32,000 bases of DNA, taken from contig NC_010814.1 in assembly GCF_000020385.1 (NCBI RefSeq), positions 2,910,001-2,942,000 of the forward strand, written 5' to 3'. The translations under genes and the position numbers were made by a program. Shown in pieces: positions 10,936 to 29,387 of this stretch (position 1 is its first letter; every line of letters starts with the position of its first letter). The stretch is from Trichlorobacter lovleyi SZ. Lineage in GTDB: Bacteria; Desulfobacterota; Desulfuromonadia; Geobacterales; Pseudopelobacteraceae. The notes beneath the pieces were generated by a model that worked only from the letters and a program-made list of their open reading frames with translations, was not told the origin of the DNA and searched no databases.

Positions 10936-10995
10936 CCAAACAAAACCATACACTTTACCGGAGTTTCTGACCTGTACTAAAAAACAAGGAACCGC

Positions 10996-12132
10996 ATGCC
11001 TCCTGTACCAACCACACGGAATACGACACCGCTTGTCCTGATCGTTGACGATAGCAGGGCGGTGCGGGTCTTTGTCCGGGAGCTGCTGGAACAGGCCGGT
11101 TATGCTGTTATCGAAGCCAATGATGGGATTGCCGGACTGGAAGTGCTTGCCACAAGGAAGCCGGATGTTGTTTTGCTGGACATTGAAATGCCCCACAAAA
11201 CAGGGCTTGAAGTGCTTGATGAGCTGGATGCCAGCAGCAGGTTGTATTCCGTGATCCTGTTTACCACCCTGTCCAGCCTTGATTCGATTGTGAACGGACT
11301 GGAACGCGGGGCGGACGACTACATCGTCAAGCCTTTCAAGGAGGCCGAGTTTCTGGCCCGGATGACCGCGGCAGTACGGATCGCCCATAACAAGCGGTTG
11401 CTGTTTGAGGCCCGGCTGAAGGCAGAGCAGACCAACAAACAGCTGCGCCAGTTGCAGAGCATCCTGTCGGATCAAAAACTGACCGAACAGAAGATCAGGG
11501 AGATCTCCGAGGCACAGAATGCCACCATCTTTGCCATGGCAAAGCTGGCCGAGTTCCGGGATGAGGATACCGGCGGGCATCTGGAGCGGGTCAAGGAGTA
11601 TTGCCGGCTGCTTGCCGAGGATCTCAACCGCCACTCACCCTATTCTGATCTGATAACCGCGGAGTTCATCGATTGTATCCAGCATGCGGCCCCGCTCCAC
11701 GACATCGGAAAGGTGGCCATTCCCGATCATATCCTGCAGAAGCCCGAAAAGCTGACCCCCGAAGAATTTGACCGGATGAAGACCCACACCGTTATCGGTG
11801 CCGATAACCTGCAGCTGGTCTACAACAACTACCCCGGCAATCTGTTTGTGGGGATGGGGATTGAGATCGCGCTCTACCACCATGAACAGTGGGATGGATC
11901 AGGCTACCCGGATGGCCTGGTGGGCAAGAACATACCGTTGCCGGCCCGGATCATGGCCCTGGCGGATGTGTATGACGCGTTGCGCTCGGACAGGTGTTAC
12001 CGCAAGGCCATGAGCCATGAGCAGGCCAGAACCATCATCCTTGAAGGTGACGGCAGGCATTTTGATCCTGAAGTGGTGATGGCCTTTTTACGTGTTGAGA
12101 CTATTTTTGCCAAGACCGCCGAGGAGATCTAG
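10996..12132 (+). CDS. Response regulator with receiver domain and HD-GYP domain (RpfG-type cyclic-di-GMP phosphodiesterase family)
   Basis: 378 aa. The receiver domain reads LVLIVDDSRAVR...VVLLDIEMPHKTGLEV...KPF. After a coiled-coil linker come HDIGKVAIPD and HHEQWDGSGYPDGL, the HD and GYP motifs. Confidence 0.9.
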   Translation: MPPVPTTRNTTPLVLIVDDSRAVRVFVRELLEQAGYAVIEANDGIAGLEVLATRKPDVVLLDIEMPHKTGLEVLDELDASSRLYSVILFTTLSSLDSIVNGLERGADDYIVKPFKEAEFLARMTAAVRIAHNKRLLFEARLKAEQTNKQLRQLQSILSDQKLTEQKIREISEAQNATIFAMAKLAEFRDEDTGGHLERVKEYCRLLAEDLNRHSPYSDLITAEFIDCIQHAAPLHDIGKVAIPDHILQKPEKLTPEEFDRMKTHTVIGADNLQLVYNNYPGNLFVGMGIEIALYHHEQWDGSGYPDGLVGKNIPLPARIMALADVYDALRSDRCYRKAMSHEQARTIILEGDGRHFDPEVVMAFLRVETIFAKTAEEI

Positions 12133-12315: not shown

Positions 12316-15300
12316 ATGGAAATGCCTGAAAATAGTCCTGTTACCCCCTTTGTTCACCTGCACCTGCATTCCCAATACTCGCTTTTGGACGGCGCGATCA
12401 GGATTGAAGACCTGGTTAGCAAGGCCAAACAGTACCAGATGCCTGCCCTGGCCATCACCGACCACGGCAACATGTTCGGTGCGGTGGAATTTTATCTGAA
12501 GTGCAAGAAGGCCGGGATCAAACCGATCATCGGCTGTGAGCTGTATATCGCCCCTGATTCCCGCTTTTCAAAGGATTCCAAGGGGATTTCCGATGCCGCC
12601 TATCACCTGATCCTGCTCTGCCAGAACCTTGAAGGCTACAAGAACCTCTCCTACCTGACCTCTGCCGGCTACAAGGAAGGGTTCTACTACCGCCCCCGGG
12701 TTGACCGCGCCCTGCTTGAACAGCACAGTGAAGGCCTGATCGCCCTGTCTGCCTGCCTGAAGGGCGAGGTTGCCATGCAGTGCGGTCGGGGCAAAATGGA
12801 AGATGCGCTGGAGACCGCCCGCTGGTACAGCCAGCTCTTCCCGGACCGCTATTACATCGAGATTCAGGAAAACACCCTGCCGGAACAGGACGTGGTCAAC
12901 CAGCGCCTGCTGGAGGTGGCCAGAGAGCTGAACCTGCCGCTGGTGGCCACCAACGACTGCCACTACCTGAACCGCGAAGATGCCAAGGCCCATGAGGTGC
13001 TGCTCTGCATCCAGACCGGCAAGACCATGTCCGACCCGACCCATATGAGGTTCTCGGCCGACGAGTTCTACGTCAAGACCCCGGAGGAGATGGCGGCGGC
13101 CTTTCACTATGCCCCGGAGGCGATTGCCAACACCGTGGCGATTGCCGAGCGCTGCAACCTGGAACTGCCGTTGGAGAAGGAGTACTACTTCCCGCACTTT
13201 GAGCCGCCGGAAGGCAAGACCCACGACGACATGCTGGAGGAGCAGGCCGTTTCCGGCCTTGAAGAGCGCCTGATCACCATCCGCGCCAAATACCCGGACA
13301 TGACCGGGGAACAGGTCCAGGCCTACCATGACCGGCTGCGGACCGAGCTGGACTGTATCCGCCAGATGAAGTTCCCGGCCTACTTCCTGATCGTGGCTGA
13401 CTTCATCAACTGGGCCAAGCGACAGGGAATTCCGGTGGGACCGGGACGGGGTTCGGCTGCCGGTTCGCTGGTGGCCTATGCCATCAAGATTACCGACCTT
13501 GACCCGCTGCCCTACAACCTGCTGTTTGAGCGTTTCCTGAACCCGGAACGGATCTCCATGCCTGATATCGACGTGGACTTCTGCCAGGACCAGCGGGAAA
13601 AGGTGATCGAGTACGTGGTGCAGAAGTACGGCCGTGAGCGGGTCTGCCAGATCATCACCTTTGGGACCATGAAGGCCAAGGCGGTGGTGCGGGATGTGGG
13701 GCGCGCCCTGGATATGGCCTATGGCGATGTGGACAAGATCGCCAAGCTGATCCCTGACGACCTGAAGATGACCATTGAAAAGGCGATCAAGCAGGAACCG
13801 CAGTTAAAGGAGATGGCTGCCGCCGACCCCAAGGTGGCCCAGCTGCTGGAGACCGCCAACTGCCTGGAAGGGCTGGCCCGCCACGCCGGTACCCATGCCG
13901 CCGGGGTGGTGGTGGCACCGAACCAGCTGGAAGAGTACCTGCCGGTCTACAAGGATCAGAAGACCGGCGGCATCAACACCCAGTATTCCATGAAGTATGT
14001 CGAGATGGTGGGGCTGGTCAAGTTCGACTTCCTGGGCTTAAAGAACCTGACCGTGATCCAGAACGCGGTACGGATGATCCGGGAAGGCCAGAACCCTGAC
14101 TTCGACATCACCCGCCTGCGGGATGATGACCAGGCCAGCTACGACCTGATCACGGCCGGCAACACCACCGGCATCTTCCAGCTTGAATCCAGCGGCATGA
14201 AGGAGATGCTGGTCAAGCTGAAGCCCTCCTGTTTTGAAGACGTGATCGCAGCCTGCGCCCTCTACCGTCCCGGCCCCTTAGGCTGCGGCATGGTGGACGA
14301 ATTTATCGAGCGCAAGCACGGCCGCCAGAAGGTGGTCTACGACCTGCCCCAGCTGGAGCCGATCCTGAAGGACACCTACGGGGTCATCGTCTATCAGGAG
14401 CAGGTCATGCAGATCTCTCGTTCCCTGGCCGGGTACTCTCTGGGACGGGCTGACCTGCTGCGCCGCGCCATGGGTAAGAAAGACCCGGCGGTTATGGCCA
14501 AGGAAAAGGAACCGTTCCTGGAAGGGGCCAAGGCCCAGGGGCTGGACATCAAGAAGGCCGAGGCGATCTTTGACCAGATGGCCAAGTTTGCCGAGTACGG
14601 CTTCAACAAATCCCATTCGGCCGCCTATGCCCTGATCGCCTACCAGACCGCCTATCTCAAGGCCCACTACCCGGTCGAGTTCATGGCTGCCCTGCTCTCC
14701 TGCGACATGGATAGCACCGACAAGGTGCTGAAGAGCATCAGCGACTGCCGTGAACAGGGGATCGAGGTGCTGCCGCCGGATATCAACACCTCGGGCCAGT
14801 CCTTTACCGTGTCGGGCAAGTCGATGCGCTTCGGTCTGGGTGCGGTCAAGGGGGTTGGCGGCGGAGCCGTGGAATCGATCATCGAGGCCCGCGCCGACGG
14901 CCCCTTTACCGATATCTACGATTTCTGCGAACGGGTGGACCTGCGCCGGGTCAACAAGCGGGTCATGGAGGCGCTGGTCAAGTGCGGCGCCTTTGATTCC
15001 CTCCACAAGCATCGCGCCCCGCTGATGGCGGCCCTGGATGATGCCACCACGGCAGGCCAGCGTTTTCAGGAGGAACGGGACAGCGCCCAGGTCTCCCTGT
15101 TCGGCGATATGCCCACCGCCACTGCTACCCGTTCCGGCCGCAAGCTGCCGGATATCGAAGAATGGCATGACAAGGAAAAGCTGGGCTATGAAAAAGAGGC
15201 GCTGGGCTTCCTGATCACCGGCCATCCGCTGGACCGCTATGCCTCCGACATCAAACGGCTGGCCAGTGCCGAAATCGCCCGGCTGCCGGAGTTCCCGGAC

Positions 15301-15855
15301 AACTGCGAGGTACGGGTCTGCGGGATCGTGACCTCCCTGAAGGAGATCATCACCAAGAAGGGTGACCGGATGGGCTTTGTCACCATCGAAGACCTGACCG
15401 GCCAGATCGAGATCACGGTCTTTTCCGACATGTACGTACCGGCTGCCGCCCTCTTGAAATCCGATGACCCGCTGCTGTTCACCGGCAAGCTGGAAAAGGG
15501 TGAAAAGGGCTGCAAGCTGCTGGTGATGAAGCCCCAGGAAGGCAATGGCCGCAAGTTCCCCAACCAGGTCAGCGTCAACGGCGATATCAAGCTGCTGTCC
15601 GAGGCCCAGGAACAGCAGACCACCCGCGTCAGCCTGGCACTGCGCCTGCTGGAACTGACAGCGGAGCAGCTGACACCGATCAGGGAACTGCTGGAAAAGC
15701 ACCCCGGCAACCTGCCGGTGTTGCTGAAGCTTGAAATCCCCAACCGCAGCCGGACCACCATCAAACTGCCGGATCACCTGAAAGTGGCGGCCAGCGATGA
15801 ATTTAGGGTAGCGGTAGAACGCTGTGTCGGGTATAATGCCGCGATCTTTGAATGA
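12316..15855 (+). CDS. dnaE: DNA polymerase III alpha subunit
   Basis: 1179 aa. The PHP domain is [16 protein letters not shown]...[13 protein letters not shown], the polymerase core contains MPDIDVDF and [10 protein letters not shown], and there is a C-terminal OB-fold region. Confidence 0.98.
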
Positions 15856-15856
15856 A

Positions 15857-15977
15857 TGGTCTTTTTCCGTTCTGACCGTGTCAAGCGACGGCCTTACTTG
15901 TGCGACGTACCAGGCAGTACGTCTCCGCGCGACGCCTCGCACACCCCAGCCATAACGAAAAACTGCTCATTCTCTTT
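15857..15977 (+). repeat. Intergenic repeat element, copy A (candidate structured RNA)
   Basis: It starts 2 nt after the dnaE stop. It shares TGGTCTTTTTCCG, CTTGTGCGRCGTAC...GTACGYCTCCGCGC and ACGAAAAA blocks with copy B (28785-28904), at the same offsets (0, 40 and 98 nt). Confidence 0.65.
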
Positions 15978-16007
15978 GTATTACCAATTTATTTGCGAGG
16001 TCACCTG

Positions 16008-16958
16008 ATGGCAGCTACTGTCTACATGGAGTTTGAAAAGCCGATTGCCGAACTGGAGAAGAAGATCGAGGAACTGCGTGCCCTGGGCGCAGGTGAGATG
16101 TCTGCCGAGATCGATGCGCTCCAGAGCTGCGTTGATACAAAGCGCCAGGAGATCTTCAACAACCTCTCCCGCTGGCAGAAGGCCCAGGTGGCACGTCACA
16201 TCAACCGCCCCTTTACCCTGGATTATATCAAGTACCTCTTTACCGATTTCAATGAGCTGCACGGCGACCGCAACTTCGGCGATGACCATGCCATCGTGGG
16301 TGGTCTGGCCCGCTTTGACGGTCAGCCGGTGATGGTGGTGGGACACCAGAAGGGACGCGATACCAAGGAGAAGGTCTTCCGTAACTTCGGCATGCCCAAC
16401 CCGGAGGGCTACCGCAAGGCGCTGCGCCTGTTCCAGATGGCCGAACAGTTCAACCTGCCGATCATCACCTTTGTGGACACCCCCGGCGCCTATCCCGGCA
16501 TTGGAGCTGAAGAACGGGGCCAGGCCGAGGCGATCGCCCGCAACCTGCGCGAGATGGCCAGTCTGACCGTGCCGATCATTGTCTGCATTACCGGCGAAGG
16601 CGGCTCCGGCGGAGCCCTGGCCATTGCCGTGGGCAACCGGGTCCTGATGCTGGAGCATTCCGTCTATGCGGTTATCTCGCCGGAAGGCTGTGCTGCCATC
16701 CTCTGGTCCGACGGCACCAAGGGCCAGCAGGCTGCTGAGGCACTCAAACCCGCAGCCCAGGATATCATTGAACTGGGCGTGATTGACGAGATCGTCCATG
16801 AGCCGGTCGGCGGCGCCCACCGTGACCACGAGGCCACTGCCCAGGCCATGGGATCGGCCATCCGCCAGCATCTTGCAGAACTGAAAGAGATGACGCCGGA
16901 GCAACTGGTTGAGGACCGCTACCAGAAGTTCCGCGCCATGACCCGCATGGCCGAGTAA
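16008..16958 (+). CDS. accA: Acetyl-CoA carboxylase carboxyltransferase alpha subunit
   Basis: Internal ATG 16008 lies 8 nt after GAGG and gives [24 protein letters not shown], which parallels E. coli Acc[36 protein letters not shown] is present. dnaE-accA adjacency also occurs in E. coli. Confidence 0.95.
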
Positions 16959-25477: not shown

Positions 25478-26597
25478 ATGTACCGCGAAGAAGTTGCACT
25501 GCTTGACGACCTGACCAGCCGAATCTCCTCACTTCGGAGGTCTCTTTGACCTGGATAGCAAACGGGAGGAGCTGCAGGAGCTTGACGCCCGTATCGCTGC
25601 CCCCGGTTTCTGGGACGACCCCTCCGGTTCTCAGGATATCCTGAAAAAACGTACGGTTATCGAAAAACTGCTCCAGTCGTGGGACTCACTCAACCGCCAG
25701 GCCGATGATGTGCGGGTGATGATTGAGCTGGGTGAAGAGTCCTCGGATGAGGACACCCTGACTGAAGTCCACCAGATGAATGAACGCCTGAAGAGCGGCG
25801 TTGAAGAGGCCGAATTTCAGCGGATGCTGTCCGGCACCCATGACCGCAACGGCTGTTTTGTGTCGGTCAACTCCGGCGCAGGCGGCACCGAGTCCCAGGA
25901 TTGGGCCAACATGCTGCTGCGGATGCTGTTGCGCTACTGCGAGAAAAAGGGCTGGAAGGCGGTGATTACCGACTATCAGGACGGCGAAGAAGCCGGCCTC
26001 AAATCAGCCACCTTCAGCGTCTCCGGTGAATTTGCCTATGGCCACCTCAAGGCCGAGGCAGGGGTCCATCGCCTGGTGCGACTTTCCCCTTTTGACAGCA
26101 ACAACCGCCGCCACACCTCCTTTGCCTCGGTCTTCGTCTTTCCCGAAATCGAGGAGGAGGATATCGATATCCGCATTGCAGACTCTGACCTGCGGGTGGA
26201 CACCTACCGTTCCAGCGGTTCAGGCGGCCAGCATGTCAACACCACCGATTCGGCGGTGCGGATCACCCACCTCCCCACCAATATCGTGGTGGCCTGCCAG
26301 TCGGAACGGAGCCAGATCCTGAACCGTGCCACTGCCATGAAGGTGTTGCGGGCCAAGCTGTACGAAAAAGAGATGGAAGAGCGGAATGCCAAGGCCTCCG
26401 AGATTGCCGGTGAAAAGCGGGAGATCGGCTGGGGCAGCCAGATCCGCTCCTATGTGCTGCATCCCTATAAAATGGTGAAAGATCTGCGCACCGGCGTGGA
26501 ATCAGGCAACCCGGATTCCGTTCTGGACGGGGCCCTGGATGACTTTGTGATTCCTTTCCTGATGGGTGTCCGGCGTGATGTCAAGGACGAGGATTAG
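25478..26597 (+). CDS. prfB: Peptide chain release factor 2, expressed via programmed +1 frameshift at 25544-25550
   Basis: Frame 0 (25478-25546) gives MYREEVALLDDLTSRISSLRRSL, then the in-frame TGA. The +1 frame from 25548 continues DLDSKREELQELD... through the SPF and GGQ motifs to TAG 26597. The site reads GGAGG-TCT-CTT-TGA-C. Confidence 0.95.
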
Positions 26598-27539: not shown

Positions 27540-28781
27540 ATGGCAATTATCCGACCTTTTGAGGCCCTGCGGCCTCCCGTACACCTGGCCCCCCGAGTGG
27601 CCGCCCTCCCCTATGACGTGATGGATGTGGAGGAGGCCCGCCAGATGGCTGGCGACAATAGTGATTCGTTTTTGCATATTTCCAGACCCGAGATCGACCT
27701 GCCCGCCTCGGTGGACCCCCATGCCGACGAGGTCCACAGACAGGGCAAACTGAACCTGCAGGGCTTTATCGAGCGCAAGGTCCTGATTCAGGAACCGGCA
27801 CCCTGCTACTATATCTATCGCCAGCGGATGGGTGCCATTGTCCAGACCGGACTGGTGGCCTGCGCTGCAGTGGATGATTATGTCTCCGGCGTGATTAAAA
27901 AACATGAGCATACCCGGGCAGACAAGGAAGAGGATCGGATCAAGCATATTGACACCCTGGATGCCAATGACGAGCCGGTCTTTTACATCTTCCGCTCCCA
28001 CCCGGAGGTGGAAGAGATTCTGCAGAACGTCATTTATGAACCGGCTGATTACAACTTCACCACAGCCGACGGGGTCTCCCACGCCCTCTGGGTAGTGGCT
28101 GATCCCTACCTGATTGAGCATCTGACCAGGCTGTTCAGCGCCATCCCGACCCTGTACGTTGCCGACGGGCACCACCGCAGTGCAGCAGCCGCAAAGGTAC
28201 GTGACCTGCGCAAGGCGGCCAACCCCAGCCACACCGGCAACGAAGAGTACAATTTCTTTCTGACGGTAATCTTCCCGGAAAGCCAGCTCAACATCATGCC
28301 CTACAACCGGGTGGTAAAGGATCTGAACGGGCTTGATACCCCCCGGTTCCTTGATACCGTAAGCAAATCCTTTCTGATTACCCCTGCCCCTGCACCACTG
28401 GCGCCTGAAGAGCGGCACCAGTTCGGAATGTACCTTGGCAGACAGTGGTATCGTCTGCAGGCCAGACCGGAACTGACCGACGAGGCCAACACCGTTGGAC
28501 GCCTGGATGTCTCGATCCTGCAGAACCACCTGCTGCACCCGGTACTGGGGATTGAAAACCCCCGCACCGACAAGCGGATCAGCTTTGTAGGTGGTATCCG
28601 CGGCCTGGATGAGCTGGTACGGCTGGTGGACAGCGGTGAGTATGCCGTGGCCTTTTCCATGCACCCCACCGGCATCCAGGAACTGATGGATCTGGCTGAT
28701 GACGACCAGATCATGCCGCCTAAGTCCACCTGGTTTGAACCGAAGCTGAGAAGCGGACTGTTTGTGCATCTGCTGTCATAG
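27540..28781 (+). CDS. DUF1015 family protein
   Basis: 413 aa. The N-terminus MAIIRPFEALRP...LPYDVMD and the later ADGHHR motif fit my recollection of DUF1015. Function is unknown. Confidence 0.8.
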   Translation: MAIIRPFEALRPPVHLAPRVAALPYDVMDVEEARQMAGDNSDSFLHISRPEIDLPASVDPHADEVHRQGKLNLQGFIERKVLIQEPAPCYYIYRQRMGAIVQTGLVACAAVDDYVSGVIKKHEHTRADKEEDRIKHIDTLDANDEPVFYIFRSHPEVEEILQNVIYEPADYNFTTADGVSHALWVVADPYLIEHLTRLFSAIPTLYVADGHHRSAAAAKVRDLRKAANPSHTGNEEYNFFLTVIFPESQLNIMPYNRVVKDLNGLDTPRFLDTVSKSFLITPAPAPLAPEERHQFGMYLGRQWYRLQARPELTDEANTVGRLDVSILQNHLLHPVLGIENPRTDKRISFVGGIRGLDELVRLVDSGEYAVAFSMHPTGIQELMDLADDDQIMPPKSTWFEPKLRSGLFVHLLS

Positions 28782-28784
28782 GAG

Positions 28785-28904
28785 TGGTCTTTTTCCGCGA
28801 TATCTGCGTAAGTCTTCTGTCGTGCTTGTGCGGCGTACTCAATGGGTACGCCTCCGCGCACTCCTTCAACAGCCTTGATCTCACGAAAAAATTCTCACTC
28901 CTTT
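28785..28904 (+). repeat. Intergenic repeat element, copy B (candidate structured RNA)
   Basis: It starts 4 nt after the DUF1015 stop and ends at the SD of the EVE gene. The block structure is the same as copy A (15857-15977). Confidence 0.65.
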
Positions 28905-28922
28905 CAGTGGAGGATGGCATAC

Positions 28923-29387
28923 ATGCGTTACTGGCTCTTTAAATCGGAACCGGGCTGTTTTTCCTTCCAGGACCTGCAAGCCCGTCCCAACGCAACTGAG
29001 CAGTGGGACGGGGTACGCAACTTTCAGGCCCGTAACTTCCTGCGGGACGAGATCAAACCCGGCGACCGGGTGCTGTTCTACCACAGCTCCATCCCGGAAC
29101 CGGCCGTGATCGGTCTCTGCAGCGTGGTACGAGAGGGCTATCCTGACCACACTGCCCTTGACCCGGCGGCCGACCACTTTGATCCCAAGGCCACACCTGA
29201 CAAACCGATCTGGTACATGGTTGATGTCCGTGCGGATCAGGCGCTGCCTTCAGAAGTCCCTCTGGCCGTAATCCGTGAACACCCGCTCCTGACCGGCATG
29301 CCGCTGGTCAACCGCAGCCGTCTTTCGATCCAGCCACTCACCAAAGAGCAGTTTGAGACCATTCTGCAGTTGGGAGGTCTTGCATGA
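28923..29387 (+). CDS. EVE-domain (PUA-like) protein
   Basis: ATG 28923 lies 8 nt after GGAGGA and gives MRYWLFKSEPGCFSFQDL...WDGVRNFQARNFLRDEIKPGDRVLFYHS, the typical EVE/THYN1-like N-terminus. The extension from 28842 runs through the repeat and was rejected. Confidence 0.85.
   Translation: MRYWLFKSEPGCFSFQDLQARPNATEQWDGVRNFQARNFLRDEIKPGDRVLFYHSSIPEPAVIGLCSVVREGYPDHTALDPAADHFDPKATPDKPIWYMVDVRADQALPSEVPLAVIREHPLLTGMPLVNRSRLSIQPLTKEQFETILQLGGLA

Follow-up and report, generated by a model that had tools for sequence, protein, structure and literature searches.

A structured repeat of about 120 nucleotides (nt) occurs twice in a 32,000-nt stretch of Trichlorobacter lovleyi SZ (contig NC_010814.1, positions 2,910,001 to 2,942,000; hereafter the window). 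Copy A lies in the spacer between dnaE and accA, and copy B in the spacer between a DUF1015 gene and an EVE-domain gene. Both are, near certainly, members of the Gmet_R1001-R1024 family of Geobacter metallireducens. The family has already been described, yet it is unnamed and uncurated. By analogy with other bacterial repeats and from its anatomy, and with little more than even confidence, we read it as a mobile palindromic repeat of the ERIC, Correia and MITE kind (MITE, miniature inverted-repeat transposable element), which would have become fixed in operon mRNAs as a translation-sensitive stem-loop.

An earlier interpretation made from the letters alone (the sequence-only reading) had called the element unrecognised, but the family was published in 2009. 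In that year, 24 'predicted short RNA elements' with the central palindrome GRCGTAGCGCTGCTACGCC were catalogued as group 1 in G. metallireducens under the names Gmet_R1001-R1024 (Additional files 4 and 5, Fig. S1; Aklujkar et al. 2009, BMC Microbiol 9:109). According to the same paper, G. uraniireducens, Desulfotalea and G. sulfurreducens have relatives too, the last at GSU0160.1 in the dapAB-dapL spacer. We built an nhmmer profile from these 24 sequences, and it found copy B (28791-28891, E = 1.6e-13) and copy A (15892-15963, E = 0.017), and nothing else in the window at E <= 1. Copy B shares 78% identity with Gmet_R1022, and copy A shares 64% with Gmet_R1004.

The published alignment of the 24 copies displays the blocks of the window element. 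The likeness covers length (about 112-116 nt), block order (CTTTTCCGC / CTTGTGCG-CGTA...TACGCCTCCGCG / CGAAAAATCC) and the central palindrome. Both window copies are of the Gmet_R1022/R1023 type, a GTACC...GGTAC variant, with GACGTAC-CAGGCA-GTACGTC in copy A, GGCGTAC-TCAATGG-GTACGCC in copy B, and the flanks TTGTGCG/CTCCGCG as in R1022/R1023. In contrast to the published elements, they reside in Trichlorobacter and at other loci, and their apical stem is GUAC/GUAC instead of the GUAGC/GCUAC typical of G. metallireducens. The 2009 paper does not contain a structure, covariation, a stop-codon rule, strand asymmetry or a form flanked by terminal inverted repeats (TIRs). No mention of the Gmet_R1001-R1024 features was found in the later literature searched. 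The sequence-only reading had not recognised a known Rfam family, and a search of Rfam likewise gave 0 matches at gathering score over the window and 0 matches at E <= 10 in both spacers.

We scanned the window, with filters off, using a family covariance model of 63 non-redundant members of the window type. The aligned copies form one long interrupted 'rod hairpin' of about 120 nt, consisting of a basal helix of 4-7 base pairs (bp) called P0, an internal loop with GGUC opposite AUCCUC, a helix P1, two arm helices and a central hairpin. P1 opens with five U-A pairs (U5/A5), which are invariant in 63 of 63 copies. The two window copies and their parts are:

15853-15973, + strand: copy A, whole element, in the dnaE-accA spacer (covariance-model match 15851-15976, 102.3 bits, E = 2e-21).
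15854-15858, + strand: copy A, 5' strand of P0 (GAAUG), pairing with 15968-15972; from the model alignment and the P0 covariation of the family.
15862-15872, + strand: copy A, 5' strand of P1 (UUUUUCCGUUC), pairing with 15953-15963.
15897-15930, + strand: copy A, central hairpin CUUGUGCGACGUAC-CAGGCA-GUACGUCUCCGCGC, with covarying apical stem and invariant flanks.
15953-15963, + strand: copy A, 3' strand of P1 (UAACGAAAAAC), from the model alignment.
15968-15972, + strand: copy A, 3' strand of P0 (CAUUC), from the model alignment.
28781-28901, + strand: copy B, whole element, in the DUF1015-EVE spacer (covariance-model match 28779-28904, 115.7 bits, E = 2e-24).
28781-28786, + strand: copy B, 5' strand of P0 (GGAGUG), pairing with 28896-28901 in 6 Watson-Crick pairs.
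28790-28800, + strand: copy B, 5' strand of P1 (UUUUUCCGCGA), pairing with 28881-28891 (UCACGAAAAAA).
28825-28859, + strand: copy B, central hairpin CUUGUGCGGCGUAC-UCAAUGG-GUACGCCUCCGCGC, in which an A-U pair of copy A has become G-C.
28896-28901, + strand: copy B, 3' strand of P0 (CACUCC), from the model alignment.

Besides these matches, the scan returned the reverse-strand shadows of the two copies themselves (25.3 and 18.9 bits) and then an unrelated match of 10.5 bits. Chance similarity has a negligible probability, because scores of 102 and 116 bits stand against 10.5 bits for the next unrelated match; the E-values of both copies and the hundreds of homologs rule it out as well. The two-copy repeat was confirmed where the sequence-only reading had seen it, with shared blocks at identical offsets (TGGTCTTTTTCCG at 0, CTTGTGCG at 40 and ACGAAAAA at 98). 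Its estimates of a 6-7 nt loop and of 40-50% identity between the blocks also held, with apical loops of 6 and 7 nt, and segment identities of 41% and 50% (66% overall). Within the window, an exact 13-mer and the 14-mer CTTGTGCGRCGTAC are both confined to copies A and B. When up to two mismatches were allowed, the 13-mer matched 6 times where 0.8 would be expected, a number that none of 100 shuffles attained.

The boundaries required revision. The element had been placed 2-4 nt past the stop codon, but its true start lies 3-4 nt earlier, because the basal helix takes in stop-codon bases in both window copies. Likewise, the element was said to end at the Shine-Dalgarno (SD) sequence of the next gene, which is roughly true for copy B (a gap of 7 nt) but not for copy A (24 nt). 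The conclusion that the repeat is not a peptide was sound. At most 41 of the 63 copies are open in any one frame, lengths vary modulo 3, and no start codon is present. A small protein gene is thus practically excluded; the minus-strand consensus translation (FFRPGKEIKGLRGGV...AARAEKD) is protein-like, but the lengths of loop and arms vary modulo 3.

The fold is supported by extensive covariation. It comprises 36 pairs in 5 helices, and changes on both sides were found at 24 of the 36 pairs (296 cells), which none of 500 shuffles matched. The proportion of paired cells was 85.9% and dropped to 38-51% when the partners were slid. P0 is variable yet complementary, with GAAAC/GUUUC, GAAUG/CAUUC (copy A), GGAGUG/CACUCC (copy B), GGGAUG/CAUCCC, AAACAUG/CAUGUUU and GAAAAGG/CCUUUUC. 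The apical stem varies between GGCGUAC/GUACGCC, GACGUAC/GUACGUC, GACAUAC/GUAUGUC and GGCGUAGC/GCUACGCC, with counts of 44 GC and 13 AU at one pair and of 48 CG and 13 GC at another, and the flanks of the central hairpin (UUGUGCG and CUCCGCG) are invariant across the family. Double changes from one Watson-Crick pair to another occurred 38 times inside single orthologous loci. For example, orthologs of the DUF1015-EVE spacer have GAAAC/GUUUC where copy B has GGAGUG/CACUCC; hence, both sides of P0 changed at one fixed locus. These within-locus double changes imply that pairing is maintained at resident loci, via selection or via hairpin-templated correction. The window copies themselves fold marginally better than shuffles (z = -1.4 to -2.7).

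Some copies depart locally from this pattern. The 3' arm of copy A (15930-15953) differs from that of its close orthologs L141, L016 and L111, whose AccA proteins are 97-100% identical, by a clustered patch (CGACGCCTCGCACA versus TAAGTCCTTGCTTG), while the 5' arm is nearly unchanged relative to the same loci. The patch could be a templated or conversion-like replacement instead of a series of independent point changes. Nested insertions were also seen, namely a palindrome of about 75 nt (GGGAGAG/CTCTCCC) in the apical loop of a copy behind groEL (L128, 4810-5010), and an insert within the 3' arm in L114 and L147.

The family is Geobacterales-wide. A scan of metagenome contigs with a degenerate pattern detected at least 114 stretches in at least 114 distinct variants, and a scan of genomes, one per species, detected 56 stretches, nearly all in Geobacterales. 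Their hosts were Trichlorobacter thiogenes, several metagenome-assembled genomes (MAGs) of Trichlorobacter, Oryzomonas, many Geobacter and Geobacteraceae MAGs, and Desulfuromonadaceae. In T. thiogenes and several MAGs, each genome has 3-5 occurrences of the exact pattern, to which the covariance model adds more; the window has two copies per 32 kb, both intergenic. Further copies in the lineage and its relatives, which the sequence-only reading had left to be counted, were therefore found, as was the element at orthologous dnaE-accA spacers across Trichlorobacter. Copy A has orthologs in T. lovleyi, T. thiogenes, T. ammonificans and MAGs related to them, and those of copy B occupy the same locus in L024, L032, L066, L072, L145 and L156. 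The dnaE-accA spacer lacks the element in Oryzomonas sagensis, where an unrelated spacer of 73 nt was found, and in Geobacter sp. FeAm09, which has a different repeat there. Oryzomonas carries the element in the groES-groEL spacer. Both the dnaE-accA and the groES-groEL spacer are missing from the list of 24 copies in G. metallireducens.

Three matches bore labels of other groups. The match in L127 (labelled Planctomycetota) is a chance pattern match inside an open reading frame (ORF), and L144 (labelled Cloacimonadota) and L171 (labelled Dongiaceae) are Trichlorobacter/Geobacter-type loci carrying the element, probably labelled as unrelated phyla through bin contamination. In T. lovleyi L177, a weak degenerate family copy (10963-11065, 22 bits) begins 14 nt past the accA stop codon, where the window has a DUF454 gene. 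It belongs to the CCTCGACGTA...TACGCCTGCG subfamily, as do Gmet_R1003, R1010, R1013, R1015 and R1021.

The most regular feature of the old copies is their position relative to the upstream gene. In the window, the neighbouring signals are:

15853-15855, + strand: stop codon TGA of dnaE (ORF 12316-15855; Pfam domains PHP and DNA_pol3_alpha in orthologs); P0 of copy A begins with its G and A.
15997-16010, + strand: accA, SD sequence GAGG at 15997-16000 and ATG at 16008, 24 nt past copy A.
28779-28781, + strand: stop codon TAG of the DUF1015 gene (ORF 27540-28781, PF06245 at 4e-110); its G is the first paired P0 base of copy B.
28909-28925, + strand: EVE-domain gene (protein PF01878 at 6.5e-52), SD sequence GGAGG at 28909-28913 and ATG at 28923, 7 nt past copy B.

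The placement inside co-directional operons, right behind stop codons, that the sequence-only reading had described was borne out for both copies. Beyond the window, we searched for an ORF of at least 80 codons on the + strand that ends at the element; calling by longest ORF was misled by antisense ORFs in this GC-rich DNA. Such an ORF ends just upstream of the element in 80 of 97 distinct window-type (non-TIR) loci. In 77 of these 80 loci, the end of the stop codon is 1-7 nt before [C/T]GGTC. All three stop codons occur, TAG 34, TAA 24 and TGA 22 times. The loci represent about 35 independent gene contexts, and in 32 of 35 the 5' strand of P0 either adjoins the stop codon or shares bases with it. 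They include groES-groEL (14 lineages), dnaE-accA, DUF1015-EVE, infB-rbfA, secA-argJ, and sites upstream of ybaK, galT and an ACT-domain gene. Diverged copies found by the covariance model only obey the same rule, for example in four lineages where one immediately follows groEL, and behind two further genes.

The distance from the element to the next start ranges from 17 to more than 100 nt, and several copies are placed between a stop codon and an intrinsic terminator. The fixed partner of the element is therefore the end of the upstream ORF and not the start of the next gene. The opposite orientation was found in a handful of loci (L138/L175, L148/L171, L022, L050/L153); here, too, a stop codon is 2-33 nt away, that of a gene on the opposite strand. 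Since the old copies almost always share the orientation of the upstream gene, they would be carried in operon mRNA. The window copies have no sigma-70-like promoter and no terminator on either strand, so that operon read-through is their sole evident transcription. An independent small RNA gene at the window copies is ruled out by the same lack of a sigma-70-like promoter and an intrinsic terminator on both strands. On both strands, moreover, a U-run precedes the hairpin and an A-run follows it; hence, the element is not an intrinsic terminator in either direction.

Several traits make a mobile-element origin of the family likely. In some metagenomes, the core lies between 17-nt TIRs (TAGTTTCCATCCGGAAA...TTTCCGGATGGAAACTA) with TA at both ends. 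The copies of this form at 14 loci of one metagenome have a mean identity of 94%. The TIR-flanked form shows no preferred orientation with respect to the ORFs beside it (12 versus 15). In the window copies, which are without the 17-nt TIRs, the basal helix of 5-6 bp corresponds to the inner end of the TIRs. The TIR-flanked form looks like a MITE in a recent burst, and the window type would belong to an earlier generation in which just the inner 4-7 bp are left as P0. The sequence-only reading had set MITE- and ERIC-type classes aside, but the element does behave like such a repeat. Insertion targeted to the TA of TAA and TAG stop codons was rejected for the window type, which has no TA outside P0, commonly follows TGA and is variably spaced, at 1-7 nt from the stop codon. 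For the TIR form, TA-targeted insertion is plausible, since in 12 of 52 copies an ORF stops at the TAG that belongs to the TIR.

Two short repeats were noticed beside the family. A 34-nt palindrome, TAGTTTCYCATCCGGAR|TTTCCGGATGGAAACTA, consists of two TIRs joined head to head (L037, 5393-5425; solo in L017, L064, L092, L107 and L116). It occurs alone and in tandem beside TIR-flanked copies, as a central-deletion product or a separate short repeat. A second, unrelated repeat of CTCTGTG-type units (e.g. TTTTTCTCTGTGATCTCTGCGCTCTCTGTGGC) fills the dnaE-accA spacer of FeAm09 (L180, about 2830-2990). It also occurs after terminators in other Geobacter loci (L131, L152, L168), downstream of the element and its terminator.

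Among known repeat systems, the nearest functional analogues are ERIC, Correia/NEMIS and other MITEs, with REP a looser one. ERIC (enterobacterial repetitive intergenic consensus), also called IRU (127 bp), is an imperfect palindrome of similar size, confined to transcribed intergenic sites in operons or to untranslated regions, which is co-transcribed and forms a long stem-loop (PMC2229807). In Yersinia, ribosome-induced opening of ERIC was proposed to expose an RNase E site, with an orientation-dependent effect (review PMC2229807). The siting of the Geobacterales element is ERIC-like, in that its roughly 35 contexts have co-oriented genes on both sides, or a stop codon on one side and a terminator on the other, with transcription deduced from the operon position. 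In contrast, ERIC belongs to another phylum, is not known to share sequence with the element, and carries a TA target-site duplication, whereas none is detectable in the old Geobacterales copies. The resemblance is functional and architectural only. We know of no rule that places ERIC within 7 nt of a stop codon.

The Correia/NEMIS repeats of Neisseria and other MITEs (RUP, Nezha) measure 100-200 bp and have TIRs, TA ends, near-identical copies and co-transcribed hairpins. The TIR-flanked form fits this description, but the window copies lack the 17-nt TIRs and have a basal helix of only 4-7 bp. The Chunjie MITE of G. uraniireducens is set apart from the Geobacterales element by its described features of A+T-rich sequence, 21-bp TIRs and 9-bp direct repeats (PMC3184786). 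REP and BIME sequences of enterobacteria and pseudomonads are likewise extragenic palindromes that follow genes in operons, and REPs stabilise mRNA 3' ends. However, REPs are GC-rich, 20-40 nt long and RAYT-associated, with a GTAG head, whereas the Geobacterales element is three to four times longer. The sequence-only reading had not recognised a REP type, and the element is indeed none: it is about 120 nt long, and GTAG is limited to the GUAGC subfamily, both window copies having GUAC instead. Liang, Rudd and Deutscher reportedly found in 2015 that REPs within about 15 nt of a stop codon interfere with termination. Integron attC sites were rejected, because the ends GAAAC-GGTC...CCTC-GTTTC lack the AAC/GTT cores (RYYYAAC...GTTRRRY) and the flanks are housekeeping genes (dnaE, accA, groESL) instead of cassettes. 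The defining features of IS200/IS605-type insertion sequence ends are also absent.

These features suggest how a resident copy might act. Judged by their operon position, window-type copies would be transcribed within the operon mRNA, where the element would form a long interrupted stem-loop whose helices P0 and P1 (with U5/A5) begin at or inside the stop codon. Since the basal helices start there, a ribosome would have to melt the base of the hairpin. A terminating ribosome would open P0 and the all-A-U start of P1, freeing the A-rich 3' strand CGAAAAAAUCCUCG, the geometry that was proposed for ERIC in Yersinia. Translation of the upstream ORF would thereby influence how the transcript is cleaved, how stable it is or how strongly the next cistron is expressed. 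In the folded state, the 120 nt would keep the stop codon near the next ribosome-binding site and preserve translational coupling, which would explain why insertions are tolerated in essential operons. A real cis effect of the element on mRNA or translation is conceivable on these anatomical grounds, though rather doubtful. We consider it unlikely that the family is a conserved device coupled to translation termination, in which each terminating ribosome toggles the rod hairpin in about 35 contexts (including groES-groEL, the groEL 3' untranslated region, dnaE-accA, infB-rbfA and secA-argJ) and thereby sets cleavage, stability or coupling of the two cistrons, or alternatively that, as the G·U asymmetry (200 versus 18) could mean, the working molecule is an antisense hairpin RNA or a single-stranded DNA hairpin from the template strand of essential operons. 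Either version, if true, would give an entire order of bacteria a novel principle of regulation or mobility.

Several observations weigh against a mobile repeat retained as a translation-sensitive stem-loop. The non-TIR copies have no target-site duplication, with TA after the 3' strand in 2 of 35 contexts and no recurrent dinucleotide outside P0, and neither an autonomous parent element nor a TIR-bounded transposase gene was found in the loci examined. Random insertion followed by selection does not obviously explain why almost all old copies lie within 7 nt of true stop codons, and compensatory changes in a palindrome can also arise without selection, via hairpin-templated correction. The strand asymmetry is a further point. 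The reverse complement folds more stably in 62 of 63 copies (mean -57.9 versus -42.8 kcal/mol), and the cells read in the minus sense comprise 1926 Watson-Crick, 200 G·U and 18 A·C pairs, leaving about 200 C·A mismatches in the mRNA sense, although these counts rest on minus-strand structure predictions, a choice that favours G·U. When a functional RNA is encoded opposite, such an excess of G·U is what one usually sees, and the few copies in opposite orientation retain the identical asymmetry. All this would suit an explanation in which the functional molecule is the reverse strand, as a cis-antisense hairpin RNA or as a single-stranded DNA hairpin for transposition or replication, and the mRNA sense is a by-product. 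The consensus energy (-45.1 for the reverse complement versus -20.5 for the plus sense), the minus-strand bias in 22 of the 24 independent G. metallireducens copies, and the changes within orthologous loci (42 to G·U versus 13 to A·C in the minus sense) agree with it. Because the asymmetry is kept in either orientation, it is a property of the element itself and owes nothing to the host mRNA. The opposite-orientation copies thus also rule out in-situ selection that weakens the mRNA hairpin, and the direction of the asymmetry is opposite to that expected from non-template-strand deamination. Nevertheless, we regard a functional reverse strand as quite unlikely. The window copies have no promoter- or terminator-like signal on either strand, and the flanks are unrelated between loci, so that there is no conserved external promoter. 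Moreover, the most conserved lower stem of the central hairpin (UGUG/CGCG) pairs via two invariant U·G wobbles in the plus sense only. Where a gene runs co-directionally with replication, its minus strand serves as the template of the leading strand and is normally not single-stranded. In our reading, master copies would need minus-strand folding, and old operon copies would survive mainly in the orientation that leaves the weaker, interrupted hairpin in the mRNA. A near-perfect RNA helix of 50 bp in an mRNA would invite cleavage by RNase III or block ribosomes.

The copies might also be inert fossils of palindromic MITEs that are harmless behind stop codons, with covariation produced by different master copies and by hairpin-templated (quasi-palindrome) correction. 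The MITE-like TIR form with its recent copy bursts, the lineage-specific presence, and the arm subfamilies common to non-orthologous loci in different genera are consistent with this explanation, as are the clustered 3'-arm patch of copy A and the low z-scores of the window copies. We nevertheless consider it unlikely, as copies are kept at the same spacers across genera with their pairing maintained (the within-locus double changes include P0 of copy B), the sequence blocks and the U5/A5 helix are invariant in all 63 copies, and the strong orientation bias and stop-codon adjacency recur in about 35 independent contexts. A riboswitch-like 5' cis-regulatory leader for the downstream gene, implied by the 2009 annotation as regulatory short RNAs '5' of' genes, is very unlikely. 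Most copies do have a co-oriented gene downstream, and the AUCCUC or CUCC tail can pair with the next SD sequence in L024, L032, L072 and copy B. However, the downstream genes are functionally unrelated (groEL, accA, EVE, rbfA, argJ, ybaK, galT and others), the distance to the next start varies widely, and what comes next is, for several copies, no gene but a terminator. In G. metallireducens, UCCAC or UCGAC stands in place of the UCCUC tail, and the fixed relation is to the upstream stop codon. Sequestration of the SD sequence by the AUCCUC tail works in the DUF1015-EVE spacers, but it is not general, in view of the 3' untranslated-region copies before terminators, the variable distances and the tail that is not conserved in G. 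metallireducens.

Compared with the 2009 description, the new observations are a structure supported by covariation, the rule on stop codons, the biased orientation, the excess of G·U on the reverse strand and the TIR-flanked form. As far as could be found, the stop-codon rule and the reverse-strand G·U asymmetry had not been reported before. Annotators should assign these spacers to a Geobacterales repeat family that is described, though neither named nor curated, and not call them novel RNAs, and our alignment and covariance model could seed an Rfam or Dfam entry. In about 35 independent cases, a structured insert of 120 nt has been kept over genus-level times immediately behind the stop codons of essential, highly expressed genes, and compensatory change has maintained its pairing. 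The family thus offers a natural system for studying how palindromic repeats are tolerated or exploited in operons, and how a ribosome at a stop codon deals with an adjacent helix.

Other features were noted around the two copies. The exact AccA protein of the window was found on 21 contigs, and gene order is the same on contigs with identical AccA. The window AccA is 97% identical to that of Trichlorobacter thiogenes and 96% identical to that of T. lovleyi. Between the two copies, prfB (release factor RF2, 25479-26597) carries at 25544-25550 the classical site of programmed +1 frameshifting, CTT TGA C, with GGAGG ahead of it at 25535-25539, and gene callers have split or truncated prfB in several related contigs. 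The region from sucD to a response-regulator/HD gene, about 0-5 kb upstream of dnaE (L001-L006; about 9.8-11 kb in the window), varies among strains with identical AccA. It contains DUF5343 and HEPN_Swt1 in L001, a NACHT protein in L004, and Lcl_C/Flg_new proteins in L003 and L005. This variable region on the sucD side may be a defence or variable island.

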